Assembly (NCBI GenBank): GCA_964353775.1
Contig: CAYGWB010000006.1
Location: 115,991 to 179,990, forward strand
Origin: an uncultured archaeon
Lineage (GTDB): Archaea; Aenigmatarchaeota; Aenigmatarchaeia; Aenigmatarchaeales; JAHLMS01
Direction of reading: 5' to 3'
Length of the DNA: 64,000 nt
Each line of letters begins with the position of its first letter. Position 1 is the first letter of the stretch. The notes below the pieces were generated by a model. The model did no database searches. It worked only from the letters and a program-made list of their open reading frames with translations, and was not told the origin of the DNA. Below, piece by piece: positions 18,696 through 64,000 of the stretch. A program made the position numbers and the translations under genes.

Positions 18696-18698
18696 GTA

Positions 18699-38660: not shown

Positions 38661-38951
38661 CTGCTTTACCTCCATTTATTTCGATTTTATTTTTTCTTAA
38701 CCTCACATGATACAACAAACTTTTCTGTCCGTTGCATCACGTTCGGTTTTGCACGAAGTTTTTCGTGCGTATTTTGAATTTCAACTCTCTGCAGCGCGCA
38801 TTGCAACCTGCTAGCGGCTGCTACAAGGTCGAAATTTTGTAAGTATACTACTATAATGATGGGATATATAATTTAGGAGAAACTGTTTCTGAAAAGGTTT
38901 GGGATTGTTTCTCGGCATGTTTTCAGGCTGAAATAACAAACAAAATGCATT

Positions 38952-42510: not shown

Positions 42511-43050
42511 ATGTCAACTATTTGCATGCAACAAGCACCTCCGATGCAGCCGGTACCTCCGCTCGGGCCGCCTCCTAGACAGCAAGGAACGCCACGCGAA
42601 AACATGCTTGCACACTTTCACCCTTCACGACTCGCTTTCTTCAAGCTGTACGTTTCGGCCATAGCACTCATTGTTATCACGCTTTTGCTCCAGACAGAAT
42701 TGATGCCAACCATTGTCCAACAATATAGATTATACACATTGGTGCTTATTGCACCGGCCGTGATACTTCTATTATTGGCCGAGCTCAGACGGATGACCGA
42801 TACCTATACAATAACAAACCTTACCGTTGTAGAGCGCATCGGTATCCTGCGTATCAACGAGAGCTTCGTAAACGTCGACAAAATATCGAGCACCACCATC
42901 AAGCAGTCGCTGTTAGACCGTCTGTTCGACATAGGCTCAATTGAAATGTGGTCGACGGGCGGGTCGGACGAACCTGAGATATCGATAGAAAAGATAGCGA
43001 ACGTACGACGCACAAAACAAATAATTGACCAGCTAGTGCAGCAGAGCTAG
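42511..43050 (+). CDS. Membrane protein with a bacterial-PH (bPH_2/YdbT-like) domain
   Basis: A 179-aa protein with a Pro/Gln-rich N-terminus, two TM helices, and then the ITNLTVVERIGILRINESFVNVDKISS pattern. Confidence 0.45.
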   Translation: MSTICMQQAPPMQPVPPLGPPPRQQGTPRENMLAHFHPSRLAFFKLYVSAIALIVITLLLQTELMPTIVQQYRLYTLVLIAPAVILLLLAELRRMTDTYTITNLTVVERIGILRINESFVNVDKISSTTIKQSLLDRLFDIGSIEMWSTGGSDEPEISIEKIANVRRTKQIIDQLVQQS

Positions 43051-50000: not shown

Positions 50001-51346
50001 ACCTGAGCGTTGACCTTCTGGTCGGTATCATCATAGTACGATTTGTTGGCGACGGCCTTCACGTAGCTCCATCCGAGGGTCTCGTTTCTGCTGACGTTCC
50101 ACGTAGTGTTCTCCGGTCCGTACAGCGGCGTGATGTTCTTGGTCGCGCCGAGATACCAGCTGACATTCACGGACACGTTGTTTCCGAATTCATTCACAGT
50201 CGTCGAGTTGAGCCAGTAGCTGACGTTCCTGTAGAACTTCTGCCCCTCAGTAACGCTCCTGATCGTTATTCCCAGCCTTCCTCTGACATCGACGCTCGTG
50301 CTTGTCGTCGTGAACGGAGTGTAGTAGTCCTTTGTGCCGTTGACGTTGATTGTCTGTGAGCCTGGCGCGTAGCTGTCCGGTGGGTTCCAGATTATCCAGC
50401 ATCTTCCGCTGGCTGTCGTACAGTTGCAGGATCCGCTCGAGGGACCGTTAGATGTTTGGGTGCAGTTGTCCAGTAAATTGGAAGTTCCATTCCAAAATCT
50501 AACAGCAACTCCGTCTACAGTGGCGGAATAGCTGTCACGCACGGTCAGCGATATGTTGAGAGTATTAGGCGTATCACTGTTGCTGCGATATATGTAGAGA
50601 TTATCCCTATTGAGTTCTGCTAAAGTCAGCGTGTCATTCACGTTCGACAATCCGGACACATAACTGAAATCCACATTGTAGTATGAATAATCGGATATGC
50701 TGCAGCTAATATTGTGTTGGCCTGGAAGGTCACCGCCACCTGGCGACCATGTCCATGTTGCGAGACCGCTTGGGTTGGTTGATACGGTTGTTTGTGGGAC
50801 ACCGCCCTTCATGAACGTGATTGGGTAGCTGTCTATGTCACCAGTGCTGTTCGAATCCGTCACCTTGCATGTGTATGGGATGCTGCCGACGCCGCGCAAG
50901 ATGCCGGGCGAACTCAACGGGGTCGTGTTCGTGAGATTTGAATATCCGAATACGGTAAATTGTTTCTGGCTAGTGACGTTCTGGCTTCCGGTCGAATTAT
51001 TGGCGAATATTTTGACATTATATACACCTAGGTTCGAGCCAGAGTTGGTAGAGATAACATGGAATGACCAGTTCGAGGCCAAGCCAGCGATTGCCGTATC
51101 ATTTGCCCAAGAGGCGCCAGCATCCTGATGGCTGAGCCACGTGAAACTTGCGGTTTCGTTCCATTTCGCGCTTACATTGACAGCCTCTCCTTTGTGTATG
51201 ATGCTTGCGTTCACAGCGGCATCGGTCGTATAGCCTATGGCAGCGAGCGCCTGCACCGCATAGAAAGCGAAGGCTATGACTATCAAGCCGACGAGCGCCA
51301 TCGCGCCCAGCTTCGCCAGACCCTTATTTCTTCGGTATATAGACAT
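44084..51346 (-). CDS. Giant (about 2400 aa) N-glycosylation-sequon-rich surface protein with tandemly repeated beta-rich modules (adhesin-like)
   Basis: A single 7.26-kb ORF. The N-terminal signal anchor MALVGLIVIAFAFYAVQALA starts at Met16 (nt 51301). It carries hundreds of N-x-S/T sequons and about six copies of a roughly 310-aa module marked by AIQIWGYS / PIQIWGWS / QFTVFGYS. An FN3-like segment lies near the C-terminus. Confidence 0.65.
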   Translation of the reverse strand: MSIYRRNKGLAKLGAMALVGLIVIAFAFYAVQALAAIGYTTDAAVNASIIHKGEAVNVSAKWNETASFTWLSHQDAGASWANDTAIAGLASNWSFHVISTNSGSNLGVYNVKIFANNSTGSQNVTSQKQFTVFGYSNLTNTTPLSSPGILRGVGSIPYTCKVTDSNSTGDIDSYPITFMKGGVPQTTVSTNPSGLATWTWSPGGGDLPGQHNISCSISDYSYYNVDFSYVSGLSNVNDTLTLAELNRDNLYIYRSNSDTPNTLNISLTVRDSYSATVDGVAVRFWNGTSNLLDNCTQTSNGPSSGSCNCTTASGRCWIIWNPPDSYAPGSQTINVNGTKDYYTPFTTTSTSVDVRGRLGITIRSVTEGQKFYRNVSYWLNSTTVNEFGNNVSVNVSWYLGATKNITPLYGPENTTWNVSRNETLGWSYVKAVANKSYYDDTDQKVNAQVWGYSNITNMTAMDYSQNRSLIPIPIICRVRDNVTGDGIANYPVDFWKNGVKNTTILTNSVGNATWNYVPTDPVGLYNISCNITDNATLYYTADLNAAGKAGQINLTDRLVIFEYARDNAYIYRNDSYSPYITTLSAHIKDAIGDSVQNANVTWWDTTNGALIGNCTTDPIGFCSVQWNPSSNFEPNNITLDVNATGTNYYPSTTNSTWVVVQGVLILNMTNVVDEQKFYRNVNYFINSTTRAENGTAMTSHSVTWRLYNATWNNTLSPYGAENYSWTVGTGLKIGDYSLNATANLTYFTDSTQTKAIQIWGYSMINGTAIPASTPANTTTALACRVSDNVTNANISGYSVQFWSNDTLINSSTTDSTGWANTTYSWAAAGVYNVTCNITGSDIKYYTASASNSNSSLISVVATLSIFEYSVDNQFIYRNDSYSPYTASLSAHIKDTAGASVLNATVSWYDNSTGNLLYNCTDGTKPCNCTTNAIGFCSVTWNPPNNFEPSNVTLAVNATKSGYNPSTTNYTWVVVQGALNINITNVIAGQKFYRNVTYNVNSTTRAENGTVMTDHNVTWTLNNVTWNTTLSPYGAENYSWTVDQTFKLGDYSLNAIANRTYYFDSTQTKAIQIWGYSMINGTSIPVNGSINTLVNISCRVTDNVTNAPLNGYIVRFWSSISGMLGADNTDSTGWANITYSWPNAGVHNITCNFTDYNASYYTASVNNSALSELRIYGKLNVSSTSEAPGGVQVDQRRVAMLKLNFSAEGETINVTQINVTLTGTATDTNVSAIELWNDSAGIPNKSLSLTVPATFNGGVANLTLTQPIVVPAGGWKVVHVLYNISGTAFNSFTLGVTLNNSNISAIGNTSVLPIQANGSEPYSSALSTIWGWANITNATALSPTYQRGTFANVACLVSNVNTSAGITNYPVRFWRDNSTLLGTNLTNSSGIAVWNWNTTNEAVGPYNITCNITDNETLYFNDTVNNNWTGSTSLYGNLYIIFMSVSPNPIYRNDNFTPYVTTFRAEVKDELGAEIPNINISFWNATFSPALLANCTTDSILSPGVCQADWNPPNTTTPGNYSIMANASGPYYTSSTQNTTYLTIKGKLYLNITNIVSGQIFFKTQNISANVTGFDENGNVVPPPPLKWFINSTNLTNVTPPMANLTTNWENVTWYINESWTPLGVWVLNVSTNLSYYDDYRLLWPIQIWGWSRVNETNLPAATQINTPVNLACRVVDANTTSPLSSHYVNFWSNVTGFLGNNYTLFDGWSNITWTPTTAGVHLITCNITTNPAQYYTPSSGVSVTTRVYGILTANWTDEAPYTAARGTSVGMLRLNLTAFGENITLNNVSVLFTGTADDTNLTAVELWNDSSGPSMPIPGASDTSSPYELAPTSYIITNGTSKIIHVVYNISSSGMPYKTVQATIEYDNSTIVSGATSGYTFYSTMSWPADSSETFIRQLPSPDLVSPADGTITTNSTVYFNWTNVSGAVNYTIKIDNSPNMLSPEYNNTWTDRNYTWTSQQGIWYWRVSSIDAGGGASDSTIWKLTVDSSKPYINLTAPANGSTWTNPTQLIYTPWDNFSSTLNCYYTLDAVPSTLASVINGTTQYVTLSLTTGQHNISINCTDLAGNSNVSVLNNFTVDTTGALISSVVLDRNPPYYVGNVFPANNMTVNVTASDPSGVSVVTANGVVLTNITPTVWTGNVSVAFTEGIHELQVVANDTAGNRNSTTVYYFVDNTLPNVTNVTITYPLGQNHVKRYQNITISAKVFDPISGGVSSGINATIAVITNATPLGVLPGVGNSINLALTDPVNNIWSATWNCSFAGCAANLSDFQANVQASDNANIGYTTSSIKNFTVDNTGFAIFINSITPDKTSASASGTDYWQWTFNVSASGGTRIRMKVANWTDGSGHIIPVASYARLQYQNATGTWKTYNILNSYNETEAVDALNITSGWTTLILNQTIPAGTYPASYSTTYAFGIYA
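46380..50930. repeat. Tandem array of roughly 940-950-bp repeats inside the giant gene
   Basis: Blocks of 24 to 54 nt are identical between copies at 48107-48160/49048-49101, 48217-48253/49158-49194 and 47935-47958/48882-48905. More diverged copies sit near 46393, 47352 and 49990. Confidence 0.7.
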
Positions 51347-51836: not shown

Positions 51837-51911
51837 GGGCCGGTGGTCTAGCGGTATGACGTCACCCTGACACGGTGGAGGTCGTCGGTTCGAATCCGAC
51901 CCGGCCCACCA
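51837..51911 (+). tRNA. tRNA-Val (anticodon GAC), CCA encoded
   Basis: Acceptor GGGCCGG/CCGGCCC, anticodon stem UCACC/GGUGG with loop CUGACAC, and T-arm GUCGGUUCGAAUCCGAC. Confidence 0.8.
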
Positions 51912-51920
51912 GTGATCATT

Positions 51921-53210
51921 ATGAAAATGTTCGCCGATCTGCACATACACTCGCACTTCTCTCGGGCGACTTCGAAGGACATGAACATAGTCAATCTGGA
52001 GAAGTACGGGAAGCTGAAGGGCATCAACCTGATCGGATGCGGGGACTTCACGCATCCGGACTGGCTGGCCGAGCTGAAGGGCGTGCTGAAACCTGTGGGC
52101 GACTCCGGCCTTTTCCATCACACCGATGAGGGCATGTTATTCGCGCTGAGCGCCGAGATTTCTCTTATATACAGCCAGGACGGGCAGGTGAGGAAGATAC
52201 ACAACGTGCTGCTCGCGCCGTCCTTCGATGTGGTAGACCAGATAAACGAATGGCTCGGAAAGCGCGGGAATCTTTCGGCGGACGGCAGGCCGATATTCGG
52301 AAAGATAACCTGCCCTGAGTTCGTGGAAGCGATGATGAAGATTTCTAAAGACATAATGGTGATACCTGCGCATGCGTGGACGCCGTGGTTCTCACTGTTC
52401 GGTTCGATGTCCGGCTTCGACAGGATAGATGACTGCTTCCAGGACCAGACAAAGAACATTTTTGCGATCGAGACCGGCCTGTCGAGCGATCCGGCAATGA
52501 ACTGGCGGCTGTCGCAGCTCGATAGGTTCGCGCTCGTCTCGAACAGCGACTGTCACAGCTACTATCCTTGGAGACTCGGACGCGAGGCAAACGTGTTTGA
52601 CATCGAGCCCACGTATGCGAATATGATAGACGCCATAAAGACCAAGGACCCGAAAAGATTCCTGTTCACGATCGAAACTGACCCGAAGTACGGCAAATAC
52701 CACTGGGACGGCCACCGATTGTGCAATGTCGTTTTCTCTCCGAAGGAAGCGGAGAAGCACAAGAACATCTGTCCGGCATGCCGAAGGCAGCTGACAATCG
52801 GCGTGGAACACCGCGTAGAAGAACTGGCCGACAGGCCTGAGGGCTACGTACCGAAGAACGCCATACCGTTCAGATCCATGCTTCCGCTGTCCGAGCTCAT
52901 TGCAGGGCTATATAATACGCAGGCGTTCTCGAAAAAAGTGTTCGAGGTGCATGCGAAGCTGATGAAAGAGTTCGGAAATGAGTTGGCTGTTCTGCTGGAA
53001 GTGCCGGAAACGAAGTTGAAAGATGTGGTGAACGATAAAATCGTCTCCGCGATAATAACGAATAGAAGGGGCGGTATACAAGTCCAGCCCGGATATGACG
53101 GCGTCTACGGGAAAGCCATATTCGGGGCTGAAGAACTGGCAAAGCCAGAAAAAATAAAAAGGCCGCAGGCCTCACTCAGCGATTTCCTTAATTCTTCCCA
53201 ATCGCGCTGA
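51921..53210 (+). CDS. Endonuclease Q-like PHP-domain nuclease
   Basis: N-terminal DLHIHSHFSRATSKDM and GCGDFTHPDW (PHP metal ligands), a length of about 430 aa, and a C-terminal zinc finger KNICPACRRQ. It matches the Pyrococcus EndoQ architecture. The ORF track begins at a GTG at 51912, directly abutting the tRNA. Confidence 0.65.
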   Translation: MKMFADLHIHSHFSRATSKDMNIVNLEKYGKLKGINLIGCGDFTHPDWLAELKGVLKPVGDSGLFHHTDEGMLFALSAEISLIYSQDGQVRKIHNVLLAPSFDVVDQINEWLGKRGNLSADGRPIFGKITCPEFVEAMMKISKDIMVIPAHAWTPWFSLFGSMSGFDRIDDCFQDQTKNIFAIETGLSSDPAMNWRLSQLDRFALVSNSDCHSYYPWRLGREANVFDIEPTYANMIDAIKTKDPKRFLFTIETDPKYGKYHWDGHRLCNVVFSPKEAEKHKNICPACRRQLTIGVEHRVEELADRPEGYVPKNAIPFRSMLPLSELIAGLYNTQAFSKKVFEVHAKLMKEFGNELAVLLEVPETKLKDVVNDKIVSAIITNRRGGIQVQPGYDGVYGKAIFGAEELAKPEKIKRPQASLSDFLNSSQSR

Positions 53211-54129
53211 TGGAGACCTGTTGCTCTGAATAATATCCGTAGCCTGCGTTGAAGCTGACGGCATACCCTGTCTTGACGCTTGGCGGGTTCAGCACTTCCA
53301 CGTCACAGATTATGCTCGTCCTTCCACCGACCATCTGGATGTTCTGATAGCACTCGCTGCTGCTTATCTTCAGGTTCTTGCTGCCGTCCAGACCGGTTAT
53401 CTGAAGATTCAAAACATTCAGGTTAGTCTCCGAAATGGAGAATCTGCTCACATCGTTGCCGTCTGCGACACCTGTTACACTGCCATAATTGTAGGAAACT
53501 CCGCCCCCGACATTGTCGAACGTCACCTCGATGGTGAAGGTCTCGCCTGCCATCTCTATGACCGGTGGATCAGGTGCTACCCTGACTGTCATCGCTACCG
53601 GCCCTTTGGTCGTCACGAAATTCGATGACTCCAGAGTCTCGCCGCGCTCTCGCGCAGCTGTCGCCTCAGATGGCGGATATATAAATATCGTTCCTAGAGC
53701 AGTCGTGTTATAGTCGTAGTAGACCCTGCCCGTGAAGGTGAAAGGCTTTGTCTGTCCTCTCGGTAGGGTCGGCGCTTTCAGCGTCCATGTCTCTATCTGC
53801 ATGTCAGCAGGTATTCCGCGCACCGGGTCTGCCGGTCGCAGGCTCTTAGAGAAGCTGCGCACCAACATCTTGTCCGTCGGGCCCCATTCATCCGCGCCTA
53901 TCAATAGAAGTCCTCCGCCCTGCCTAACTGTGGTCTCGCCCTGGTTCTCTATCGACGCTGTCACGCGTACGTTGCTGTCGCTGTACACCTCTGTCTGATC
54001 AGAAGAGAAATCAGTAATCTCAAGGCCGTTGCCAGTTGTTGTGGTGGGCGTACCGCCCTGAGTGCAGCCGGCCACAAGCATTACGCCTAGAACCAGCAGC
54101 ACGAGCGTGATTTTTTTGTTGAAAAACAT
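53188..54129 (-). CDS. Secreted lipobox protein with beta-rich Ig/CARDB-like domains
   Basis: The signal peptide MFFNKKITLVLLVLGVMLVAGC carries a lipobox. The Thr/Gly/Val-rich beta pattern is CARDB-like (RVTASIENQGETTV). Confidence 0.5.
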   Translation of the reverse strand: MFFNKKITLVLLVLGVMLVAGCTQGGTPTTTTGNGLEITDFSSDQTEVYSDSNVRVTASIENQGETTVRQGGGLLLIGADEWGPTDKMLVRSFSKSLRPADPVRGIPADMQIETWTLKAPTLPRGQTKPFTFTGRVYYDYNTTALGTIFIYPPSEATAARERGETLESSNFVTTKGPVAMTVRVAPDPPVIEMAGETFTIEVTFDNVGGGVSYNYGSVTGVADGNDVSRFSISETNLNVLNLQITGLDGSKNLKISSSECYQNIQMVGGRTSIICDVEVLNPPSVKTGYAVSFNAGYGYYSEQQVSISAIGKN

Positions 54130-54141
54130 TACATCATCCTC

Positions 54142-54999
54142 CTATTTGTTTTTTATTTTGATAGTGAAGCTATTGTCAAGCTCGTATTTATAGTTTGCGG
54201 TCAGACTTATCGTTCCCGTGCTCACTGGGCTGTTGCCGGCTTTCGTACTGAACGTGCAGGTGCTGCGCGGCGCAGCCTTGTTTATGAACGACAGGTTGCG
54301 GTTTAGGTCGATTCCCGTGTAGTGGTTGCAATCCGAATCTTTGATATTGTCCGGCATAGTGAGCTTCACAGAACCGCTGGCCAGATTGTCGATGAATCCA
54401 CCGCCCGTGTCTGTATAGTCGATGAACATGCTTACCGTCTCGTTGTCCGCCCAGGGCTGCTCGCTGCCGAAGGTTATAGTGATAGAGACCGGGCTGTTCG
54501 ATGCGGACATGCCTGCAGTGATGTCGCCGAGCGTGCCAGCGGCTTCTCTGGCAGTATACTCCGCGTCTGAAAGGACCGTGACGCTCTGGCTAAGGCTCGC
54601 GTTCCCTTCCCAAGAAGTCCTGAACTTTATCTCGCAGTCTGTGTCGAACTGTACGGCAGGCGCGGTCCATCTGGGGTTCCAACGCAGGGTCCTGTTGGAT
54701 GTGAGGTTGTCCTTATGGTATGTGAAACCGTCCTGATCCGACCGGAACCCGCAGGTCTCGTAGACGTTGATATTGATGTTATACAAATCGGACTGCTGCG
54801 TGTTGGTGATGTCAAAATTAACGCTCATGTTCTTTTCTTCCCTGACCTCTGCCGGCACTGCGGCAACGGACATACTCATGTCAGTGTTAGTTACGGATGT
54901 CGTACCGGCTATCGGTCCGATCTGCGACTTTTGCCATGGCATCGAAACGCAGCCAGAAACGAGTATGGCAAGTGCGAGCAACAATAGCATATAGCGCAT
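54142..54999 (-). CDS. Secreted lipobox protein, beta-rich (paralogue-like)
   Basis: A signal peptide with the lipobox ILVSGC. The protein is 285 aa. Confidence 0.5.
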   Translation of the reverse strand: MRYMLLLLALAILVSGCVSMPWQKSQIGPIAGTTSVTNTDMSMSVAAVPAEVREEKNMSVNFDITNTQQSDLYNININVYETCGFRSDQDGFTYHKDNLTSNRTLRWNPRWTAPAVQFDTDCEIKFRTSWEGNASLSQSVTVLSDAEYTAREAAGTLGDITAGMSASNSPVSITITFGSEQPWADNETVSMFIDYTDTGGGFIDNLASGSVKLTMPDNIKDSDCNHYTGIDLNRNLSFINKAAPRSTCTFSTKAGNSPVSTGTISLTANYKYELDNSFTIKIKNK

Positions 55000-55035
55000 G
55001 CTATTACATCACAATATAGATAGATAAATCTTTTG

Positions 55036-56007
55036 TTAGCCTGTCAGTTCCGTGTTGATCGAGACGGACTGCTCGGCCGCCAGGTCGTAGGAATATGTGT
55101 AATTGGCTATTACCGTGAACACCTTTGTCACGTCGACCGACGGCGCCGTCAGTCCGCACCTTACCTGGATGCTCTCTTTCTGTACCATGTTGATGGTCTT
55201 GTTGTTGGTGTATATCTTAAAGTCGCCGTCCGTGTTAGTGGTATCCTTGAAGTAGCCGCCGCAGTTGTCAGTATCCATCGTCAAATCCTTCGGAATTCTC
55301 AAATCCAGGTTGCCTGTCACTATGTCCCGCAACGCGCCTGTCCCCTTGTCTTCAACCTGTATGAACAACGGTAGCGTGTTGCCGCTCTTGACTGGCAGGC
55401 TCGCGCCCCAGCTGAGGCTTATCTTGACCGGACCGGGACCGATCGTTGTCGTCGGGCTGAACGAAGCTGACTCTCCGGACCTCTGCAGCCGTTTGAGCTC
55501 ATCGGCGTTTATGACCTGCGCGGTCGATGTGCTCACGGACTCCATGGTGTAGTTGACCTTCCATCTTACCGGACAGGTCGCTTCCAATCCGCCTGTCTGC
55601 GCCTTTGTCGGCGCAGTGAAGCCGAGTTCGAAGAACTCCGTCTGCTGCGGCACTAGTTCGCCCATGTCCTTAAAGTAGGCCGACGAGCCGACTGCAGTAA
55701 AGCCTGTGGTCGTGCTTGCTGTGCAGAGGCCCCAGTCGTACAGAAGCACGCCGACGTTTTCCACTGGGAAATCGCCCGTGTTGATGACCTTGAAGTTGAG
55801 CTCGAATGTCTCGTCTGGTGAAACGCTAGAAGGAATGATGTTGATATCAGAAACTTGGATGACATCCGCCGGTGCCTCCTTTACCTCGCCTGGCTGGCCG
55901 AAGAGCCCTTGGAAACCGCCGCCGCTGATGCAGCCAGCAACGGCAACGACTGAAATCAGGAGCAGTGCGAACATCGCTTTTTGCATGATATCAATACCGT
56001 TTACCAT
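55036..56007 (-). CDS. Secreted lipobox protein, beta-rich (paralogue-like)
   Basis: A signal peptide with the lipobox VAVAGC. The protein is 323 aa. Confidence 0.5.
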   Translation of the reverse strand: MVNGIDIMQKAMFALLLISVVAVAGCISGGGFQGLFGQPGEVKEAPADVIQVSDINIIPSSVSPDETFELNFKVINTGDFPVENVGVLLYDWGLCTASTTTGFTAVGSSAYFKDMGELVPQQTEFFELGFTAPTKAQTGGLEATCPVRWKVNYTMESVSTSTAQVINADELKRLQRSGESASFSPTTTIGPGPVKISLSWGASLPVKSGNTLPLFIQVEDKGTGALRDIVTGNLDLRIPKDLTMDTDNCGGYFKDTTNTDGDFKIYTNNKTINMVQKESIQVRCGLTAPSVDVTKVFTVIANYTYSYDLAAEQSVSINTELTG

Positions 56008-56019
56008 ATATTTAATACT

Positions 56020-58143
56020 TTAACATGATGTGCATCCTTGGCACGGTGCGATCGAAGTCTGTGTTATCGTCATCTTTACCGAGTCGTCGACTGTGACATA
56101 GTGATAGTCGACGCTGCCGACGAACGCTATTGTCTTCTTGTCAAGGTTGTTCGCGATGTTGTATGCGAACTCGAACGCCCAGTTGGCAGATTCGCCAGGG
56201 CCTATCTGGCTGCTAAGGTTCAGCGTATAGCAAATGTAACTGCTGTCATCAGGGCATTCTTTTATTATCACATTATTTGCATCCGTATCGATGTTTGTAG
56301 CGGACACTGTTTTCAAGTCTACGTAAGGAGCCTCAATTCCAGAGAGGGTTTTCGGTATCCTGAGTTTTATCTTCGCGCCGTCTTTTGTCACGTTGCCGTT
56401 ACCAGTGTTCATTATCGAGATGCGTCCGAAGCTGGTCTCATTGTCTCTCAGCGGTTGCTTCTGGGCGAAAAGTGAAATCTTCACAGGCCCGCCAGAGTAT
56501 TTCGACTCCATCGATTTCAGCTGGATCTGCTTGTTCATCAGCTGCGTCTCGAACAGCGACATGTTCATTATTTCTATCGGCATGCTGACGTTCGCCATGT
56601 AGTCGAACGAATAGTCGAACGGTATGACGACTTGCCAACCACTGTGATTGTAGGTCGTTATTCCGCTCGTTAGGTCTTTTGTTTCCTTGCGTACTTTGCA
56701 GTCCTGCCAGCCGGCCGGTGCGCACTTGAAGAGCATCAGTTTTATGTCGCCCGGCAGACTTTCCTGCTTGCCTTCCTCTGTCCACTTGCAGCTGTCGGCC
56801 GTTGTGTCGGTCAGATAAGGCGTCGTGCCTGTACAGGCGGTGAATGCGCATGTATCTGATATAGATTGCCAGCACTTTTGCGGATCATTTGCAGAATATA
56901 ATGTCGGGTCGCAGACAGCCAGTTCGTGGAACTTGATGCTGATGTTGCGCGCCGTAAACGTGCCCTTGTTCTCGAGCTGCATTGAGCCTACTAACGGTAT
57001 CCTCGGGTCGAGCTCGCTCGTGCCTTCGGCGTAGTTTATCGCCATAAACTCCGTCAGTTCGATACTCTTGGCAGTGCCACCTTCAGTGACCTTGGTATTT
57101 GCCTCCTGCTGCTTCTTCTCTTGCTCGGCATAGTAGCAGGTCGGGCAGGTCATTATGGTCGTAACATCATGCATGCCGCTGCTCATCTGGTCCCAGACGC
57201 CGCCGAAAGGTTCTGCGATGGCCGTGCCGGTCGCCAGTACCTGCGGCCACCAGACACCGAATACATTGGTACCGACAACGCCGGTATATTGGAAAGAGAA
57301 CGCTATCACGGCGAGTGAAATTACGAATATGCCGAGGTAAGGTCTGGTATCCCTGCCGCCGGCATAGCCCATCACGAATGATAACAGCCATATCAGTCCG
57401 GTTATCACCTGCGCGACGGGTATGCTTGCCGCTCCAGCCGGACCCATTGTCATCCACATCACCATTGGCACGCCTCCGATGATTGCAAACGACATGAAGA
57501 TGCTGTCAGCGAACGAATCGATGGCGCCTGTGACGCCCTCCTGGAAGCCTTTGAGGGCCGTGTTCTTTATCTCAAGTACGACCTTCTGTTCGCCTTCGCG
57601 TTCCATGGGTTTCGGTGGCTGACAGAAGAAGGCTATTGCCAGGAAGAATATGGAGAAGGAAGGCGATGCGTCGCTGAAGAAATAGGAAGATAACCATGTA
57701 ATGCCGGCCCCGACGAATACCATGAATATCAAAAATATTATGAATATGAGAGCCTTCTGCCACTTCTTCTTGGCTGCGATGGTTGCGATGCCTAGACAGA
57801 TGGCAATGACGCCAGGGATGAACATCGCCATTAGATTAGTCAAGAGTTCGCCTGTGCCTCCAGGCGAAAGAATGACCAGCAGGAACACTGCCACAAGGCC
57901 GCCGACTAACATCTTGAACCAGCCCTCGATTGCCCTGAACGGCTCGTCCTTGTAGTAGCTGCTTGGCATCGTGAAGTAGGCGGCGAGCGCGGCAATCAAA
58001 CCTATTATCGGATAGAAGAAGAAGCATTGGATTGCGATGAAGAAGACCGCAAACATCTTAAGCAGGCTTTTCATCATAAGCTGGCCTATGTGTTCGCGCA
58101 TGCCCATCTTCAATTTCAGTATGTCTTCTTCTCCAGCCATCAC
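56020..58143 (-). CDS. 8-TM membrane protein with a large Cys-rich C-terminal ectodomain (unknown family)
   Basis: A 707-aa protein. The N-terminal half has about eight hydrophobic helices. The C-terminal 340 aa are rich in Cys, Thr and Asn with a C-terminal CQGCTSC. It overlaps the upstream gene by 4 nt. Confidence 0.55.
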   Translation of the reverse strand: MMAGEEDILKLKMGMREHIGQLMMKSLLKMFAVFFIAIQCFFFYPIIGLIAALAAYFTMPSSYYKDEPFRAIEGWFKMLVGGLVAVFLLVILSPGGTGELLTNLMAMFIPGVIAICLGIATIAAKKKWQKALIFIIFLIFMVFVGAGITWLSSYFFSDASPSFSIFFLAIAFFCQPPKPMEREGEQKVVLEIKNTALKGFQEGVTGAIDSFADSIFMSFAIIGGVPMVMWMTMGPAGAASIPVAQVITGLIWLLSFVMGYAGGRDTRPYLGIFVISLAVIAFSFQYTGVVGTNVFGVWWPQVLATGTAIAEPFGGVWDQMSSGMHDVTTIMTCPTCYYAEQEKKQQEANTKVTEGGTAKSIELTEFMAINYAEGTSELDPRIPLVGSMQLENKGTFTARNISIKFHELAVCDPTLYSANDPQKCWQSISDTCAFTACTGTTPYLTDTTADSCKWTEEGKQESLPGDIKLMLFKCAPAGWQDCKVRKETKDLTSGITTYNHSGWQVVIPFDYSFDYMANVSMPIEIMNMSLFETQLMNKQIQLKSMESKYSGGPVKISLFAQKQPLRDNETSFGRISIMNTGNGNVTKDGAKIKLRIPKTLSGIEAPYVDLKTVSATNIDTDANNVIIKECPDDSSYICYTLNLSSQIGPGESANWAFEFAYNIANNLDKKTIAFVGSVDYHYVTVDDSVKMTITQTSIAPCQGCTSC

Positions 58144-58916
58144 TTTCCACCTGTAAGTTCGACCTTAATCCTCCGGATCTCTCCCTGCTGTCCCGGCAGT
58201 TCTTGTCCAGCCTCTAACAATATTCTGACTATATTTTCAATCGGAACTCCACCACCTTTTAGCACTGCCACCGCATCCTGGACGCTTAAACCTGATTTCA
58301 TAAGTTGAATCATTTCTCTCTTCAGTCTTGGGAAATGCCCCGCCCTTACGGATTCCATCACTTCTGCCTCGCTGGGCATGGTTATGTAGAAAGCTAAGAA
58401 TATCAGTCCTATACCGAGCCAGATGAAATTGAAAATGCCCGCGATTAACGCGGCAGCGAACAGAATTCCCATCTCGACAAGCCTTTCTTTAACATGGATA
58501 TTCGTTACATGAATGCCGTGCTCCCAGACAGGTTTTTTCGCCTCCTCTTCTTCTTTTTTTGGCGGTAGGATTGCCTTCTTCAATCGCTTCGAATCTTCCC
58601 ATTCTTGAAATTTTGCCAGAGACCCAGGTGGCAGTCCAGCTGCCGGTCCTGCCCCCCTCCCGATCTTGGCCGTAAAACCCCCGTGCGTAGGGCACTCCCA
58701 TACATCAGTTGTTGCATCATAAGTAAGCGGGCCATTGCATGCGGGGCATACTCTCCGTGGAAATTGGGATGGTGCTGCAATGGGCGTGCTACATTCTGGA
58801 CATACTGTAGCATCATATGGTATCATCTTTCCACAAGCAGGATTGGGACATCTTTTTCTCGGAATCATCGGTGGTAAAGGAATTCTCCTTTTAAAAGTTC
58901 TAGCCAAAAGCACCAC
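58140..58916 (-). CDS. Double zinc-ribbon, TM-hairpin protein (unknown family)
   Basis: A 258-aa protein with two Cys4 ribbons (CPNPACG..CPEC and CPACNG..CPTHG), a K/E-rich linker, a hydrophobic segment of about 32 aa, and a C-terminal alpha domain. Confidence 0.5.
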   Translation of the reverse strand: MVLLARTFKRRIPLPPMIPRKRCPNPACGKMIPYDATVCPECSTPIAAPSQFPRRVCPACNGPLTYDATTDVWECPTHGGFTAKIGRGAGPAAGLPPGSLAKFQEWEDSKRLKKAILPPKKEEEEAKKPVWEHGIHVTNIHVKERLVEMGILFAAALIAGIFNFIWLGIGLIFLAFYITMPSEAEVMESVRAGHFPRLKREMIQLMKSGLSVQDAVAVLKGGGVPIENIVRILLEAGQELPGQQGEIRRIKVELTGGK

Positions 58917-58985
58917 CCTCGCTTTTACCTGTCATGAATGGAAGCATCATAACAAATAACTCCGTATCCATACTTATATTATTGC

Positions 58986-60149
58986 TCATGGACAATCGAG
59001 GCACACCCACTCGTCTTCTTCACTATCGATCGTACGTTTCTTTCGGACGTTAGTGCCTCCGCAATATGGACAAGACGGTACTTCATTCGCTGGTACTACC
59101 ACCTCGGCCATAGGCTCTCCGTACTTTTCTTCGTACTCTTCTTCTTCCTTTTCAATCGACGTTTGTGATGGCGGTGTAGGCCTTGCTGATGGTTGTACTG
59201 TGGTCGTTTGTTGCGGTCTTGGAGGCAATATTTGAATTGGGGGTGATGGCGGTAGCGGCGGTGATGGAGGTGGCGGTCGCATTACTCGCAGTGGCATATC
59301 TCTTGATGAGAGCGGCCTTAAATGTGGTGGTCTAAGCATCGGTCGTGGTGGTAGAGGTCTTTGCGGATAGTCTATGCCTTGTATTAGGTCCTTTCTTAAT
59401 TTCCGTTTTTCCCAAAAACTTAGCTCTGAGGGCGCTTTAGTACCTTTCCATTCAGGAGCCAGTTCTCCCATAGTTTCAATCATTTCTTTGGTCGGTTCTA
59501 CTAGACTTCCGCCTTCGAACAGACCTGGACTAGTCGTTTGAAAGGGCTTTCGTGGAGGCTTCATGAACGTTTTCTTTATCGGCAGTTCGGGTTCTTCCCA
59601 ATCAAGTCCTTCCAAATCAGATGGTGTACCTGTAGCTGTCTCCGTTTCCTTTGCTTCAGCCAAATCTTTATCTATTTCTTCTCCTTTTTTCTCCGCTCCT
59701 GATATCTCTTCTTCCACTACCTTTTCCTCTTTGGCCTCGATTTTCTTAGATTTCTCTATTAATTTTTCAATAGCTTCATTGCATTTTTTTTGAATTTCTG
59801 TATCACTGATGACTTGCGCATCTTTAGTCATCAGTCGAATCATATCATCGAAGAGCGAAGTATTTCCTTTTTCCAGGGCCTCTTCAGCTGTTTTAGAATT
59901 TGTCTCGAACGACTCGATACACAAATTATTAAATCCTTTCATGTATATATCCACGTCTTTCATAGCCGCTGAGAGAGAATCAATCTTTTTTACTGGCAAC
60001 GAACTCACAAGAACAGTTTCCTTTAACCTGGGTCTTTTTGGTTTAGATATGGTTGCTTCCGCACGTTGCTGTTCCGATTCTTCTATCACTTTTTCCGCGG
60101 TTTCAATATCTTGATCTGCCTTTTTCTCTGCCTCTTTTCCCTTTGGCAT
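58986..60149 (-). CDS. Acidic coiled-coil / Pro-rich protein with a C-terminal zinc ribbon (unknown family)
   Basis: A 387-aa protein with an E/K-rich N-terminal half, then a PPxP-rich tract (RPPPPSPPLPPSPP), and a terminal CPYCGG...CLDCP. Confidence 0.5.
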   Translation of the reverse strand: MPKGKEAEKKADQDIETAEKVIEESEQQRAEATISKPKRPRLKETVLVSSLPVKKIDSLSAAMKDVDIYMKGFNNLCIESFETNSKTAEEALEKGNTSLFDDMIRLMTKDAQVISDTEIQKKCNEAIEKLIEKSKKIEAKEEKVVEEEISGAEKKGEEIDKDLAEAKETETATGTPSDLEGLDWEEPELPIKKTFMKPPRKPFQTTSPGLFEGGSLVEPTKEMIETMGELAPEWKGTKAPSELSFWEKRKLRKDLIQGIDYPQRPLPPRPMLRPPHLRPLSSRDMPLRVMRPPPPSPPLPPSPPIQILPPRPQQTTTVQPSARPTPPSQTSIEKEEEEYEEKYGEPMAEVVVPANEVPSCPYCGGTNVRKKRTIDSEEDEWVCLDCP

Positions 60150-60157
60150 GCTAATTC

Positions 60158-62701
60158 TTACCTCTCCACCTTATTTATATTTTCCATTGATTCGTTTCTG
60201 ACATTCGATTCGGGCTTGAACGTAAACTCGACCGTGGATGTCAGGCCTGCCCTCTCGGCGGCCGCTATGCCCTCGACATTGCTGGCCTCAAATATCTTCT
60301 CAAGGTAAAGGTTCCTGTTCTGCACTTTTCCCTTTATGGCGGCCGGAATAATCTTGTGTTCGACCATCGTCCTCTGCTCCAGTATATTGAACTGATTTTC
60401 GAATTCGGTCGTATACTTGATGTTGTCGACGTCCAGCTCCTGCTTCACGGCAGCTAGTGCCGCCTCGACCCTGACGAGACCTCCGCCAGGAGCGCGTGAG
60501 GCCTTTGTGCCGCAGCGCGCGCAGATGTTGTAGCCGTCCTCGCCTACATAAAACTCGTGCGCGCCGTTAGGACAGCTATTCTTCCCCTCGAAGAGCGACA
60601 CGGGTGTGACGGAAGGCATTATTGTCCTTGACAATGTCTTTACTTCGCGGGGCCGCTGCAAAAATAAATCCGGGTGGACCGAAGCGATGTGCTGCTCCAG
60701 CCTTTCGTAGATTCCGTGTTCGCCGCATACCGGGCAATACAACGTTTCGAACGCCCTTTCAAATCTCTGTACCGCCTTGCGATACCTGGTGTTCAACAGA
60801 ACATTCGTCTCGCTCACGAGCTGTTTTACTGGAAGGCCGTAGAGCTGAGCAACGACATTGGACAGGACGTCCTCTCTTGACAACACCACTACGATGCTTC
60901 TGAAACGCTCAAGCTCAGGGATGAGCGACCATTCGTCCATGGTTTCTTCAGAAAGGAATATCCTCTTTATCATGCCCGGAGGTATCGGAGCGGCAGAAAT
61001 GACCTGATATTGTCCGCCCCTGGACATGCCGGGAGCGTAACGTATGAAATAGACATCGTCGGGCGCCCGCTCTATTTCCAGCACAGGACCGCCGCGGGCA
61101 TAATCGCTCGCTTCGTTCGGGTCGGCTGTCAAGTACACGGCCCTTCCTGTCACGGCCTCCCTGCCAAGACTGTCCGCTGCGAACGTGAACGAGCCGGGCT
61201 GCAGGCCGTATTTCAAAATCGCCGGCAGGCTACTGAACGAACAGCCGTGGAACCACCCCGGAAGATTCTCGATGGGAACGGTCAGTTCGCGTTTCTTTAC
61301 CTTCAATACAGGAGTCTCCTCCATCGGAAGCAGGCCTATCGGCAGCGCTTCTTCCAACGGTTGCGATCCTTCTTTAAAGGGCAGGAACGACAGTGGCAGA
61401 CCGCCCTCTTCCGCCTCGCCTCTTTCACCGGCAAGTGGCAGCAGGCCCATCGGAACTCCCTCTTCTGCGCCGCCTGTCTGTTCGATGGGCATGAAACTTA
61501 GAGGCAGCGCCTCTTCCAGACTTTCTGAAGTATCTTCCTTCGGAATGCCTAGGAAGCTCATAGGCAGCCCTTCCCGTATCGTGACAGGTCTGGGCGCCGG
61601 CGGTGCGGGTTTCGTGAACCATCCAACCTTCTTCTCAAGAGTAGGCTCGCCCTTCCTCTCGGTTACTCTGTACGTTCCGGCCGGGGCGGTTCTCTGCATC
61701 GTCCTCACGAGCTTCTCCTCGGTCACACTGCCAGGTTCTTCTCTCATCGTATATTTTGGCCCGCTGGCGGTCATGACCGGCGGCCTCTCCATGAGTTGGG
61801 GCTGTTCGGGCTCCTGATAAACAGAACCCAGCCTCGCTTCACAGCTCGGGCATGCGAATCCCGGCGGGATATCGGTCTGCAGACCGCACCTCGGACACTC
61901 GCTGTTTACAGCGTTCCTGGGGGCGCTATTGAGCGACATGCGCTGGGCATCGAGCAGCCTCTTGTGGGACTGCCAACCGGCTATGTTTTTTTGGACATCA
62001 TCCAGGGCGTTGTCCGTTTGTATTATTTTTTCATAATTCTCCTGGTCCGCTATCTGCAGCGCTCTCATGTTGTCGTTGTATTCAGTATCAATATTCAGAA
62101 GCTCGCGTTGGAATTCTTCCCTGAGGCTCTCCTGCTCCGGGCTGTACTTCTCTTTCACGTCAGGATACCATTTGATCATGGATGAAAGCTCTCTCATACG
62201 CTTGTCGAAGACCGCCTGCAGCTCCTTTTTCCTTCTCTCATTATCTTCCTTGACCTGGCTCATGCCGTTCCGTATGGTCACGATGTTGTCAGAAAGCGCT
62301 GCGTCCGTCTTGATCAATTGCTGCCTATTCGCCTCAAGCGATTGTATCTCTTCGGACACGGACTCCAGATAGACGTTCAGCTGCTCGGCCTCTGCATCGA
62401 CCTGGGCTATGAACTTCTTCGGGGCTGCCTCAATGCCTTGTATGCGCTCGAGCTCCTGGACATATGCCTCCTCGGTTATCCTTCCGGCGGAACGCGCGGT
62501 CGCGGCCTCGGACAGCCTTCTCCGGGCCTCTGCGCCGACCGGTATATATTGGGCCAGACGCCTCTCGCGTCGTCTCCTCAGCTCCTCTATAGAAAGCTCT
62601 TCAGGCACGCTGAATATTTGTCGACATGACCATAAAAACGAGAGGTTTAAATACCAACTAAAACAATTACTTGTAAGTGGTAAAAGTGTCGGAAACCCCA
62701 C
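60158..62701 (-). CDS. Large multidomain protein: coiled-coil, zinc ribbon, 14-aa LPxSFLP tandem repeats, Tpt1/KptA-like ADP-ribosyltransferase-fold domain, C-terminal zinc fingers
   Basis: An 847-aa protein from a GTG start in the ORF track. Residues 478-585 read WFHGCSFSSLPAILKYGLQPG...AVYLTADPNEAS...QYQVISAAPIPPGMI, which aligns with KptA YHGTSRRFLDEILRDGLRP...HVHLSADEATA...GVWLTDHVPPEYL. Zinc ribbons lie at residues 268-287, 655-675 and 710-731. Confidence 0.55.
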   Translation of the reverse strand: MGFPTLLPLTSNCFSWYLNLSFLWSCRQIFSVPEELSIEELRRRRERRLAQYIPVGAEARRRLSEAATARSAGRITEEAYVQELERIQGIEAAPKKFIAQVDAEAEQLNVYLESVSEEIQSLEANRQQLIKTDAALSDNIVTIRNGMSQVKEDNERRKKELQAVFDKRMRELSSMIKWYPDVKEKYSPEQESLREEFQRELLNIDTEYNDNMRALQIADQENYEKIIQTDNALDDVQKNIAGWQSHKRLLDAQRMSLNSAPRNAVNSECPRCGLQTDIPPGFACPSCEARLGSVYQEPEQPQLMERPPVMTASGPKYTMREEPGSVTEEKLVRTMQRTAPAGTYRVTERKGEPTLEKKVGWFTKPAPPAPRPVTIREGLPMSFLGIPKEDTSESLEEALPLSFMPIEQTGGAEEGVPMGLLPLAGERGEAEEGGLPLSFLPFKEGSQPLEEALPIGLLPMEETPVLKVKKRELTVPIENLPGWFHGCSFSSLPAILKYGLQPGSFTFAADSLGREAVTGRAVYLTADPNEASDYARGGPVLEIERAPDDVYFIRYAPGMSRGGQYQVISAAPIPPGMIKRIFLSEETMDEWSLIPELERFRSIVVVLSREDVLSNVVAQLYGLPVKQLVSETNVLLNTRYRKAVQRFERAFETLYCPVCGEHGIYERLEQHIASVHPDLFLQRPREVKTLSRTIMPSVTPVSLFEGKNSCPNGAHEFYVGEDGYNICARCGTKASRAPGGGLVRVEAALAAVKQELDVDNIKYTTEFENQFNILEQRTMVEHKIIPAAIKGKVQNRNLYLEKIFEASNVEGIAAAERAGLTSTVEFTFKPESNVRNESMENINKVER
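61309..61570. repeat. Tandem 14-codon repeats encoding EE(A/G)LP(L/M)(S/G)(F/L)LP x6 inside the 847-aa gene
   Basis: The protein segment GLPMSFLGIPKEDTSESLEEALPLSFMPIEQTGGAEEGVPMGLLPLAGERGEAEEGGLPLSFLPFKEGSQPLEEALPIGLLPMEETP contains the copies. The underlying DNA also repeats (ggcagcaggcc.atcggca.c..ctcttc). Confidence 0.6.
62644..62654. promoter_or_regulatory. TATA-like box ggtttaaatac in the divergent region between the 847-aa gene and the 62677 gene
   Basis: It sits about 25 nt upstream of the plus-strand GTG start at 62677. Confidence 0.3.
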
Positions 62702-63090
62702 AATATACCGGCAGTGACGTCGCGGACGCCATGCGCAGCTACGTCGCAGACGTCAGCAAGGACCTGAGAAAAATAGAGGAAGTGAAGGACCCTGCGAAAC
62801 AGCTTGAGTTCTACAAAGAGGTATTGAGCGGTATAGAAGAGGATGAAAAGGACTTCAAGATCGATATGTGCAGTATCGTGTCGGCCGAGACCGAGCTCGC
62901 GAACAGAGGTAAGATGCCGATGGAATGCATACCTATTATGGAAAAGCTAAAGACCGAACCTACGCCGGCAGAAAAGGTAGTTATCGAATACAACAATATC
63001 GAGCTGCTGAAGATGAGGGTCAATGGACGCATCAAAGAGCTTTCCAAGAAGTATTCTAAAAAGCGTGCGGAAAAATATTCCAAAAATTAG
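62677..63090 (+). CDS. Hypothetical cytoplasmic K/E-rich protein (137 aa)
   Basis: The start is a GTG in the ORF track, with an alternative ATG at about 62731. No family recognised. Confidence 0.4.
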   Translation: MVKVSETPQYTGSDVADAMRSYVADVSKDLRKIEEVKDPAKQLEFYKEVLSGIEEDEKDFKIDMCSIVSAETELANRGKMPMECIPIMEKLKTEPTPAEKVVIEYNNIELLKMRVNGRIKELSKKYSKKRAEKYSKN

Positions 63091-63238
63091 TATTCTCTTA
63101 TGGGCCAGCCGGCTATCGGCCGTCTGAAACCACAGTTCGTGCACATGTTCTTCGTCGTTTCGATGACGTTCCTGCACTTCACGCAATATGATTCCTGCAT
63201 GGGCAGGAATTGGCAATAAAAGGAGATAAAGCTTTGCC

Positions 63239-64000
63239 CTATTCGAAGTAGGCGATTATTTCGACGTGGCTTATGGCATAGCGCGTGCCTGGCATGACCG
63301 ACAGGTCGAGCCTGTTCGTGCCTATGAGGAAGTTGTCCGAACTGAAGTCGCCCAATATGTCCGTCTTGACGTCCGCGTATATCTGCTGTCCGTTCAGCTT
63401 CGCGACCAGTTGGCCGGTCCCCTCCTTGCGGTTTACGCTTATCACTAGGCGCCCCTTTGTCGAAAGAGCCACTTCCCTGTTGGACATCGAAAAGCTAAAG
63501 TTCTTTGTCAGCGCACCGGCCCAGTTGACGCTAGCCTCGGCAGACAGCACGTAGACGGTCGGCGCCCAGAACTTCCAGCCGCTGGATTCGGCCTTGACCT
63601 CCAAAGAGTTCTCGGCCTTCAGAAGCTCCGGTCCGAAGGCTAAGGAATGATCTCCTGGATAGGCATAATCGTTGAAAAGCTCATTGCCGTTCAGGCTGAC
63701 GATAAGTTTTCCGAACCTGTTCGTATCATTTACGTGCAGTACTATGTGGCCGCCTGTCGCGGATTCTGGTTCGGACAGCTGGAAGCTGTATATCTTGTCC
63801 TCTGCAGAAAGCAGGCCGCGGCTGACCGTTCCGGAAATGTTCGCGACCGGCATTTCGGCCGAGATATAGCCGATGGAAAAGTTGTCGGCGATCGGAATAT
63901 GGATAAGGTCCTGCGTTACAGCCCCTCCGCCGCCAGTAGTATGCGAAGGCGGGATGATAGCTATTGCGCCGAAGGCTACTAGGAGGCCTGCGAAAACCAG
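63239..64000 (-). CDS. Secreted/membrane-anchored beta-rich protein, 5' end outside the window
   Basis: The frame stays open upstream of the listed Met to the window edge and encodes an N-terminal hydrophobic helix LVFAGLLVAFGAIAII. The body is beta-rich. Confidence 0.5.
   Translation of the reverse strand: MVFAGLLVAFGAIAIIPPSHTTGGGGAVTQDLIHIPIADNFSIGYISAEMPVANISGTVSRGLLSAEDKIYSFQLSEPESATGGHIVLHVNDTNRFGKLIVSLNGNELFNDYAYPGDHSLAFGPELLKAENSLEVKAESSGWKFWAPTVYVLSAEASVNWAGALTKNFSFSMSNREVALSTKGRLVISVNRKEGTGQLVAKLNGQQIYADVKTDILGDFSSDNFLIGTNRLDLSVMPGTRYAISHVEIIAYFE

Follow-up and report, generated by a model that had tools for sequence, protein, structure and literature searches.

A conserved DPANN gene cluster of membrane and surface proteins, flanked by Pelota and EndoQ

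A predicted archaeal secretion or membrane complex built on arCOG01314 (DUF4350) joins a MoxR ATPase, a vWA protein and a DUF1616 protein to the Ig-like “S-layer” families arCOG02487 and arCOG02884 (Makarova, Galperin & Koonin 2015, PMC5898192). Next to arCOG02487, a secreted family specific to DPANN archaea has also been noted (cls.004306, NEQ255; PMC6393860), which we compared with the present locus by its description only. The haloarchaeal tat-fimbriae are encoded by the taf cluster, which includes the S26 peptidase TafD, the DUF5305 protein TafG and proteins with Tat signal peptides (PMC11821415). Here we set against these systems a group of genes found in a stretch of 64,000 nucleotides (the window) from an uncultured Aenigmarchaeota-type archaeon (assembly GCA_964353775.1, contig CAYGWB010000006.1, positions 115,991 to 179,990), which encodes zinc-ribbon proteins, a polytopic membrane protein and a series of lipid-anchored surface proteins. 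It is a real, conserved and hitherto undescribed gene cluster of DPANN archaea, whose key proteins have no assignable family. Our literature searches found no published description of it, and surveys of DPANN protein families do not describe it in their main text.

The original prediction had pointed to seven tightly spaced or overlapping genes on the minus strand, and these are present as it described them: seven co-directional open reading frames (ORFs), g1 to g7 (847, 387, 258, 707, 323, 285 and 313 amino acids), occupy positions 53188-62701, with intergenic gaps of 8, 69, -4, 12, 36 and 12 nucleotides. The last of them, g7, overlaps by 23 nucleotides the 3′ end of its convergent neighbour, which is clearly EndoQ, as had been proposed (match to PDB 5zb8, E 7e-56). 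The cluster does not end at 62701, where it had been closed, since two further conserved members lie upstream, a gene of 37 codons at 63087-63200 and another of about 265 codons running from 63239 to beyond 64000. Nor are the seven genes an evolutionary unit. If the longer of the two upstream genes is named A, the 37-codon gene B, and g3 to g7 are named C to G, the real conserved unit is Pelota(-) / A-[B]-[variable slot]-C-D-E-F-G / EndoQ(-), and of the seven-gene synteny that had been expected across genomes the part from g3 to g7 is indeed co-conserved in many of them, whereas g1 and g2 are not.

This unit emerges from the comparison of 23 loci (L001-L023). The closest relatives of g4 returned by a word-indexed search are 41% identical, and their contigs carry orthologues of g3 to g7 in the same order, at 29-44% identity, and beyond these a convergent EndoQ gene whose product is 83% identical. 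Upstream of them there is no counterpart of g1 or g2; there is a gene of 264 codons whose product is 64.5% identical to that of the partial ORF 63239-64000 of the window, and then the 37-codon zinc-ribbon gene. A compact version occurs in metagenome-assembled genomes (MAGs) of Aenigmarchaeota (L008, L009), which read Pelota(-) / A-B-C-D-E-F-G / EndoQ(-), C following B directly. The same arrangement is found in more distant contigs, namely a Nanoarchaeota MAG (L010) and twelve further metagenome loci. Mapping with hidden Markov models recovered the series Pelota(-), A, (C)D, E, F, G, EndoQ(-) wherever a locus was long enough to show it, which covers at least ten lineages: the full order from Pelota to EndoQ is seen in the window, L001/L012, L005+L007, L008/L009, L010, L014, L017 and L022, and partial contigs with a consistent order are L006, L013, L015, L016, L018-L021 and L023. 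Identity of D to the window protein across these loci is 27-41%, with a low end of 27-31%, while that of EndoQ stays within 57-83%. The window and L001 also share a wider neighbourhood, with genes for a bPH_2 protein, a radical SAM protein, a TrmB-like regulator and an S-layer protein. Because the order and this wider neighbourhood are kept across lineages, the cluster is to be regarded as a chromosomal, vertically inherited and co-conserved core in DPANN archaea.

The family of D is much larger than the first searches implied. The word-indexed search gave only three proteins, even with a profile of 22 sequences, a count that reflects its candidate filter and not rarity, and a scan of GTDB, which depends on exact peptide patterns, gave a single locus. 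An exhaustive profile search for D found 277 representative clusters at E<1e-3, 105 of them at E<1e-30. Every named relative of D or A belongs to an Aenigmarchaeota or “Nanoarchaeota” MAG (among the homologues of A are proteins from Candidatus Aenigmarchaeota MAGs).

A mobile or viral origin had been left open for these genes, in part because a tRNA-Val gene lies 1.3 kb away. The distance is correct (1.28 kb; tRNA-Val at 51837-51911), but EndoQ stands between the tRNA gene and the cluster and belongs itself to the conserved neighbourhood, so the tRNA gene does not mark an integration site. An integrated virus or mobile element carrying envelope proteins could further be argued from a weak PHROG match of unknown function to the coiled-coil region of g1 (E 8e-6) and from the atypical codon usage of g2 and g3. 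However, wherever a locus is long enough to show both ends, the cluster is flanked by a divergent Pelota gene and a convergent EndoQ gene, and its position and flanking genes are identical across distant lineages in which D has fallen to 27% identity. A virus structural module or provirus was rejected as an assignment, as no integrase, att-like repeats or capsid or spike homologues were found and the distribution is not patchy; no convincing repeats flank the slot that holds g1 and g2, and no relatives appeared in phage genomes, IMG/VR or the BFVD fold library. Codon usage was compared as GC content at third positions (GC3), which is 0.36 in g2 and 0.43 in C versus 0.62-0.73 in A, g1, D-G and ten housekeeping genes, so A, g1, D, E, F and G have native usage. 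The two low values suggest that a module of g2 and C was replaced recently by recombination with a relative of lower GC content. Given the lack of viral relatives and the conserved chromosomal synteny, the cluster is not mobile, and for its core we regard the mobile-element explanation as effectively refuted, with hardly any probability left to it.

As to family, the proteins match nothing described. None of the nine proteins of the cluster area reaches significance in Pfam, NCBIfam, PHROGs or PADLOC, and sequence searches of the PDB with g1 and with profiles of D, A and E/F/G returned nothing relevant. This agrees with the original prediction, which had recognised no ATPase, secretin, pilin, archaellin or S-layer family and no described archaeal surface machine: none of those families was detected in any of the seven, and profile searches of all seven gave no significant family. 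A type IV pilus, archaellum or Tad-like system was discarded for want of any T2SSE, T2SSF or pilin match among the nine window proteins, and an ABC transporter was discarded as well, with no ABC_tran, BPD_transp or SBP families and with beta-sandwich proteins, not an SBP fold, in E, F and G. The arCOG01314 system resembles this locus in being a conserved archaeal neighbourhood, delineated by comparative genomics alone, of nearly all membrane or secreted proteins with Ig- or CARDB-like domains. However, DUF4350, the MoxR AAA+ ATPase, vWA and DUF1616/pfam07760 were not detected by Pfam in the cluster proteins or in L001, even at E<=1, and neither the families of A and D nor a zinc-ribbon partner or lipobox paralogues belong to the system as published (PMC5898192). 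The parts listed by the original prediction, namely zinc ribbons in the cytoplasm, a polytopic membrane core and beta-sandwich proteins with lipid anchors, are borne out by the protein sequences, as follows.

Gene A (63239-64000, minus strand) is partial, with its first ~12 codons beyond the window end. Its product has an N-terminal transmembrane (TM) helix (MPEFIPVLI...) followed by two jelly-roll beta-sandwich domains, an architecture recovered by its structural model (pLDDT 83, pTM 0.49). Fold matches of the model include many GH2 sugar-binding domains and carbohydrate-binding modules (CBM) of families 6, 29, 35 and 36, and one homologue of A has a weak Pfam “CBM-like” match (E 4.6e-4). From this model, A is best described as a membrane-anchored tandem CBM-like protein, for which carbohydrate binding is predicted. 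The K/R-G cleavage motif of class III signal peptides is absent from its N-terminus (MPEFIPVL...). A is the most conserved member of the cluster, with 57-68% identity among close relatives versus ~40% for D-G, and its tandem jelly-roll family is newly defined, without a Pfam entry. Gene B (63087-63200, minus strand), which the original list had missed, encodes a zinc-ribbon mini-protein of 37 amino acids, MQESYCVKCRNVIETTKNMCTNCGFRRPIAGWPIREY. Orthologues of the same size follow A directly in L001, L007, L008, L009 and L012 (phmmer E 1e-17 to 1e-19), and none was detected in the more distant loci.

Gene C (g3, 58140-58916, minus strand) combines, as had been claimed, zinc ribbons with a membrane segment: CxxC pairs form N-terminal zinc ribbons, followed by a single hydrophobic segment of ~30 residues with a conserved FYxxxPxExE motif, and by a helical tail. 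Its match to Pfam DZR (E 2e-4) is below the gathering score. C lies directly upstream of D in L001, L006, L008, L009, L013, L015, L016, L019 and L021, and the two occur as natural fusions in P0028, P0043 and P0050; in P0028 the order is zinc ribbons, a C-type hydrophobic segment with ‘GFYIWIPGE’, and the N-terminus of D. As the two are fused into one polypeptide in several distant genomes, a Rosetta-stone argument holds that C and D work together. A BLAST hint of homology between the hairpin of C and the TM segments of D was pursued and not established (hhalign of family against family, probability 13.6%).

Gene D (g4, 56020-58143, minus strand) encodes an 8-TM domain (residues ~29-300) and a Cys-rich ectodomain of two beta-sandwich domains (residues ~350-707). 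The topology agrees with the earlier description of eight TM segments and a Cys-rich ectodomain, for there are seven strong and one weaker hydrophobic segments, the Lys+Arg content of the loops alternates across 22 family members in a way that fits 8 TM helices with the C-terminal ~360 residues outside, and 14 of the 17 Cys fall within residues 333-707. The AlphaFold2 model, built on an alignment of 22 sequences (pLDDT 72.5, pTM 0.54), likewise consists of a helical membrane domain and beta-sandwich ectodomains; a fold search with it found nothing specific to the membrane domain, and there was no match in the BFVD viral fold library (TM-score <=0.15). The invariant residues of the TM domain are Gly, Pro and aromatics with a single Arg (R267), a set that does not look like an enzyme active site, and this points to a scaffold or conduit rather than an enzyme. 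The 8-TM family is newly defined and unclassified, and it has no Pfam entry. Two relatives of D are auto-annotated “MFS transporter”, an assignment that we rejected because no profile match backs the label.

That the 8-TM domain of D forms with C an uptake conduit, importing lipids, glycans or nucleic acids of a host that the beta-sandwich proteins capture and feed to it, is an idea that several of these features bring to mind. In the polytopic domain both the loops and the motifs at the boundaries are strongly conserved, two of its relatives carry the transporter label, and a membrane-anchored CBM-like protein such as A resembles BcsB, a glycan guide at a membrane channel. Import routes are needed by DPANN archaea, and to our knowledge they are still unknown. 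Against it, there is no energising ATPase, the only invariant charged residue within the membrane is R267, and the “MFS” label finds no support in profile scans. The BcsA-BcsB pair is indeed alike in placing a polytopic protein beside a membrane-anchored jelly-roll carbohydrate-binding protein, but D has no glycosyltransferase domain and no similarity to BcsA in sequence or fold, and the likeness of A stays at the level of a common fold. We therefore regard an uptake conduit as unlikely.

A distant paralogue of D with a different outer part was seen in L011 (9001-13044). This protein, P0136, of 1347 amino acids, carries CarboxypepD_reg and a C-terminal glucosaminidase (peptidoglycan hydrolase) instead of an ectodomain like E/F/G. 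Its neighbours are AliA/AliB, of archaeal lipoprotein biogenesis, and a type IV pilus set (two T2SSF and a T2SSE), and the A, E, F and G genes are not nearby.

The three remaining genes of the unit, E (g5, 55036-56007), F (g6, 54142-54999) and G (g7, 53188-54129), all on the minus strand, encode lipoproteins that had been taken for paralogues, as they are: E is related to F at E 7e-13, and F to G at E 0.003. Their lipoboxes read VAGC, VSGC and VAGC, respectively, and the Cys is invariant in 15 orthologues. The consensus given for archaeal lipoproteins of the AliA/AliB pathway in PMC12462473 is [LVI][ASTVI][GAS]C, to which E, F and G conform by sequence, so lipidation is predicted for the three. 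E has two beta-sandwich domains, and G has a weak CARDB-like N-terminal domain (Pfam CARDB, E 0.0013), more clearly visible in its L001 orthologue (E 7.5e-5; 23.3 bits against a gathering score of 22.7). An alignment of 15 E/F/G sequences shows the lipobox Cys, a CARDB-like NxG motif, a conserved Cys pair and a terminal YxY, the last of which is also present in D. Furthermore, the distal half of the D ectodomain matches the E/F/G profile with an hhalign probability of 97.1% (E 5.7e-11). The D ectodomain and E, F and G are thus four paralogous two-domain beta-sandwich modules, and given this homology four displayed modules are predicted, one tethered through D and three through lipid anchors. 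In fold, the D ectodomain matches CARDB-, Ig- or cohesin-like beta-sandwiches of the bacterial adhesin and pilin type, which it shares, as by homology would E, F and G, with MSCRAMMs (SdrD, ClfA) and Gram-positive pilins; unlike those, the proteins here belong to archaea and are anchored through a lipobox or, in D, through the 8-TM domain to which the ectodomain is fused. Some orthologues have grown: F contains a Cys-rich insertion of ~90-100 residues in L001 (13219-14337) and L010 (14520-15683), and E is doubled to 684-710 residues in two marine loci (L014, 12269-14323; L018, 2474-4606). Such insertions and doublings are lineage-specific elaborations of extracellular proteins.

Paralogous Ig-like proteins beside membrane proteins, with no ATPase, are also what the taf cluster consists of (PMC11821415), and the modules could in principle polymerise on a membrane platform into an ATPase-independent surface fibre, like the haloarchaeal tat-fimbriae or the beta-sandwich pili of Gram-positive bacteria. 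Yet the lipobox Cys of E, F and G is invariant, which predicts proteins that stay bound to the membrane and are not released into a filament. In addition, no S26 signal peptidase (no peptidase S24/S26 match at all), DUF5305, sortase or Tat motif was found, and the lipobox signal peptides at the N-termini have no twin arginine. A fibre of this kind seems to us very improbable.

Between B and C lies the variable slot, and g1 and g2 are what the window holds there. The g1 ORF of 847 codons exists as had been described, but its start is probably not at 62701: the first 31 codons cross an AT-rich, promoter-like stretch, which makes the GTG at 62608 the likelier start and g1 a protein of 816 amino acids (60158-62608, minus strand). 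In the 847-residue numbering, g1 contains a coiled coil judged from composition (residues 35-255), a zinc ribbon (269-287, with CxxC pairs at 269 and 284), five tandem LPxGLLP repeats of the form EE-x-LP[LMI][SG][FL][LM]P (379-461; positions 61319-61567), an ART-like domain with an H...Y...E-type motif (482-629; positions 60815-61258) and C2H2 and CxxC zinc fingers (656-730, with CxxC at 656 accompanied by HxxxxH and CxxC at 727), so that the coiled coil and zinc fingers announced for it are in place. The ART-like domain has no Pfam, NCBIfam, PADLOC or PDB sequence match; it is related to the C-terminal half of a 454-residue slot protein of L007 (E 5e-10), which keeps its motifs WFHGCS, VYLTAD and VLEIE within the shared blocks GW[FL]HG, [VI]YLT, [VI]LE[IL] and I[ST]A..[IL]PP..I.RI. 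The ART fold is a suggestion at motif level only. Among all ORFs of the 23 loci, the 13-residue EE.[LV]PMGL[LI]PLAG occurs only in g1, in five related copies, and in a 312-residue protein of L001/L012, and the N-terminal 268 residues of the 454-residue L007 protein are 80% identical to a 498-residue protein of L001. Taken together, g1 appears to unite in one protein several modules that sister lineages encode separately. Relatives of g1 were found neither in metagenome contigs (by pattern search) nor in IMG/VR or phage genomes.

The second slot protein, g2 (58986-60149, minus strand; 387 amino acids), is acidic, as originally described; it includes a coiled coil and a Pro-rich stretch and ends in a zinc ribbon (CPYC...CLDC). 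It has no sequence homologue in the other loci, and its architecture of a charged N-terminus and a C-terminal zinc ribbon recurs in slot proteins of L001 (312 amino acids) and L020 (183 amino acids). Upstream of g1, the opposite strand carries a Lys/Glu-rich ORF of 137 codons (62677-63090, plus strand) whose status as a gene is uncertain; it found no homologues in searches, and its GC3 of 0.62 is typical of window genes. Elsewhere the slot contains the 498-residue protein, an opposite-strand gene of 204 codons (unrelated to the 137-codon ORF) and the 312-residue coiled-coil and zinc-ribbon protein (L001/L012), the 454-residue protein (L007) or the charged 183-residue protein with its C-terminal zinc ribbon (L020), and it is empty in the Aenigmarchaeota MAGs (L008, L009), L014 and L017.

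Such turnover bears on the original proposal that the products of g1 to g7 are all integral subunits of one trans-envelope machine. Tight spacing and common direction speak for it, as do the recurrence of g1 modules in the same slot of two sister lineages and of a g2-like architecture upstream of C. On the other hand, complete clusters exist without any slot gene in L008, L009, L014 and L017, g1 and g2 are both absent from these and from L010, no homologues could be detected for them beyond the closest clade, and A and B, which the proposal leaves out, are cut off from the slot by an ORF on the opposite strand. A seven-subunit machine is improbable on this balance, and g1 and g2 are clade-restricted cytoplasmic accessory proteins, inserted in the slot between B and C and tied to it, not core subunits. 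The slot is a recombination-prone place, and its shuffled cytoplasmic modules may mark a site of conflict or regulation.

Two further slot contents were noted. In the distant locus L022 (5996-9030), the only one with pilin-like contents, there are between A and a C-D fusion three small ORFs with pilin-like N-termini (e.g. MSNMKGLETMPLRFVVVVIV...) and a 607-residue polytopic protein; these ORFs have no Pfam support for T2SSF or pilin families, and the polytopic protein was rejected as a T2SSF on that ground. The slot proteins of L001 (5909-7405) and L007 (10947-12311) share in their N-terminal ~268 residues the pattern ‘IWGYLIG...ILGxIHKHISP...SKxDL’, which is reminiscent of JAB/MPN metalloproteases, a motif-level lead with no Pfam match.

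What could this cluster do? We tentatively favour, with slightly less than an even chance for the statement as a whole, an ATPase-independent, glycan-binding platform for surface binding or attachment in the envelope, set on a base of C and D. The products of A to G would assemble into one envelope complex that needs no ATPase, in which C and D would form the membrane base, while a hetero-oligomeric cap outside the cell would be built from the D ectodomain and the lipid-anchored proteins E, F and G. A would add glycan binding, directed either to the glycans of the cell’s own S-layer and envelope or to a host surface. On the inner side, the conserved cytoplasmic loops of D and the zinc ribbons of B and C would couple the complex to the cytoplasm, together with any slot proteins that a locus encodes, such as coiled-coil and zinc-ribbon adaptors like g2 and the putative ART-like enzyme g1. 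A role at the cell surface or in host contact is plausible because the source organism is a DPANN archaeon.

Several points weigh against this platform. The physical association of A to G is drawn from synteny, paralogy and the C-D fusion, and glycan binding by A from its predicted fold. The models of D and A are of medium confidence (pTM 0.54 and 0.49), and the folds they match are generic beta-sandwiches and jelly rolls, found in adhesins, enzymes and capsids alike. The 277 clusters of the D family carry no taxonomy, and its restriction to DPANN archaea relies on few named relatives. The platform does not account for the aberrant GC3 of g2 and C. Lastly, a strict position and a single copy fit housekeeping envelope biogenesis at least as well as host contact.

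This last point opens another explanation, a housekeeping complex for envelope biogenesis or tethering that organises the cell’s own pseudo-periplasm, for instance by anchoring or spacing the S-layer through its glycans, and that would take no direct part in contact with a host. Across phyla the cluster keeps strictly to its place beside housekeeping genes and to a single copy, the most conserved member is the putative glycan binder A, which fits a conserved self ligand, and an S-layer protein gene belongs to the same neighbourhood. But the D and A families are missing, as far as named matches show, from non-DPANN archaea that have S-layers, and the lineage-specific Cys-rich or large insertions of E and F, with the fast turnover of the slot, are more typical of proteins with variable partners. 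Such a complex is a serious possibility, with a chance well short of even. The attachment platform could also be extended into a lineage-defining, ATPase-independent machine of the DPANN-host interface, whose cap binds host glycans while the base of C and D conducts host lipids, metabolites or nucleic acids inward, and whose slot proteins (zinc-ribbon adaptors, ART-like or JAB-like enzymes) tune or protect the gateway; we consider this version quite unlikely.

Other genes around the cluster deserve mention. Between the bPH_2 gene with a tRNA-Gly and the tRNA-Val/EndoQ pair, the minus strand of the window encodes a 2420-residue repeat protein (44084-51346) that is very rich in N-x-S/T sequons, starts with a signal or anchor and has an Ig-like match to Big_13; a 346-residue ORF follows it (43047-44087). 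This pair is absent from the syntenic region of L001, and the repeat protein is a candidate for one of the giant surface adhesins that have been reported in DPANN archaea. A 924-residue protein (35901-38675, minus strand), in the neighbourhood conserved in L001, matches the S_layer_C outer domain (E 5e-13) and is likely an S-layer protein; its GC3 of 0.54 is below that of its neighbours. Further away, the minus strand between 12807 and 18004 encodes an AMP phosphorylase-like protein (523 residues), a form III RuBisCO (431 residues) and an IF-2B-family ribose-1,5-bisphosphate isomerase (278 residues), with CorA in between, which is the archaeal AMP-salvage pathway, and a bacterial-type MetK is found at 9733-10929. 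Such a gene content is typical of DPANN genomes. The Nanoarchaeota locus L010 has, just past EndoQ (18171-19709), a gene for a HerA/DUF87 ATPase with a fused TrmB-like HTH; as the other loci do not show it there, it probably has no connection with the cluster. The EndoQ ORF of the window is listed from a GTG right after tRNA-Val (51912), but residue 7 is the first to align with P. furiosus EndoQ, so that translation probably begins at one of the ATG codons a little way downstream.

A large part of the diversity of archaea falls to DPANN, whose members live in attachment to other cells and are missing many pathways of biosynthesis. The count of families that are both DPANN-specific and widely conserved is low (PMC6393860), and one study found no DPANN-wide set (PMC8204110). 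The locus described here comprises six to seven unassigned genes for membrane and surface proteins whose order and chromosomal position are the same from Aenigmarchaeota to “Nanoarchaeota”, and in which the C-D fusion supplies a Rosetta-stone link between two of the products. It is therefore a candidate, definite enough to be put to the test, for a core part of the envelope of DPANN archaea or of their interface with a host.

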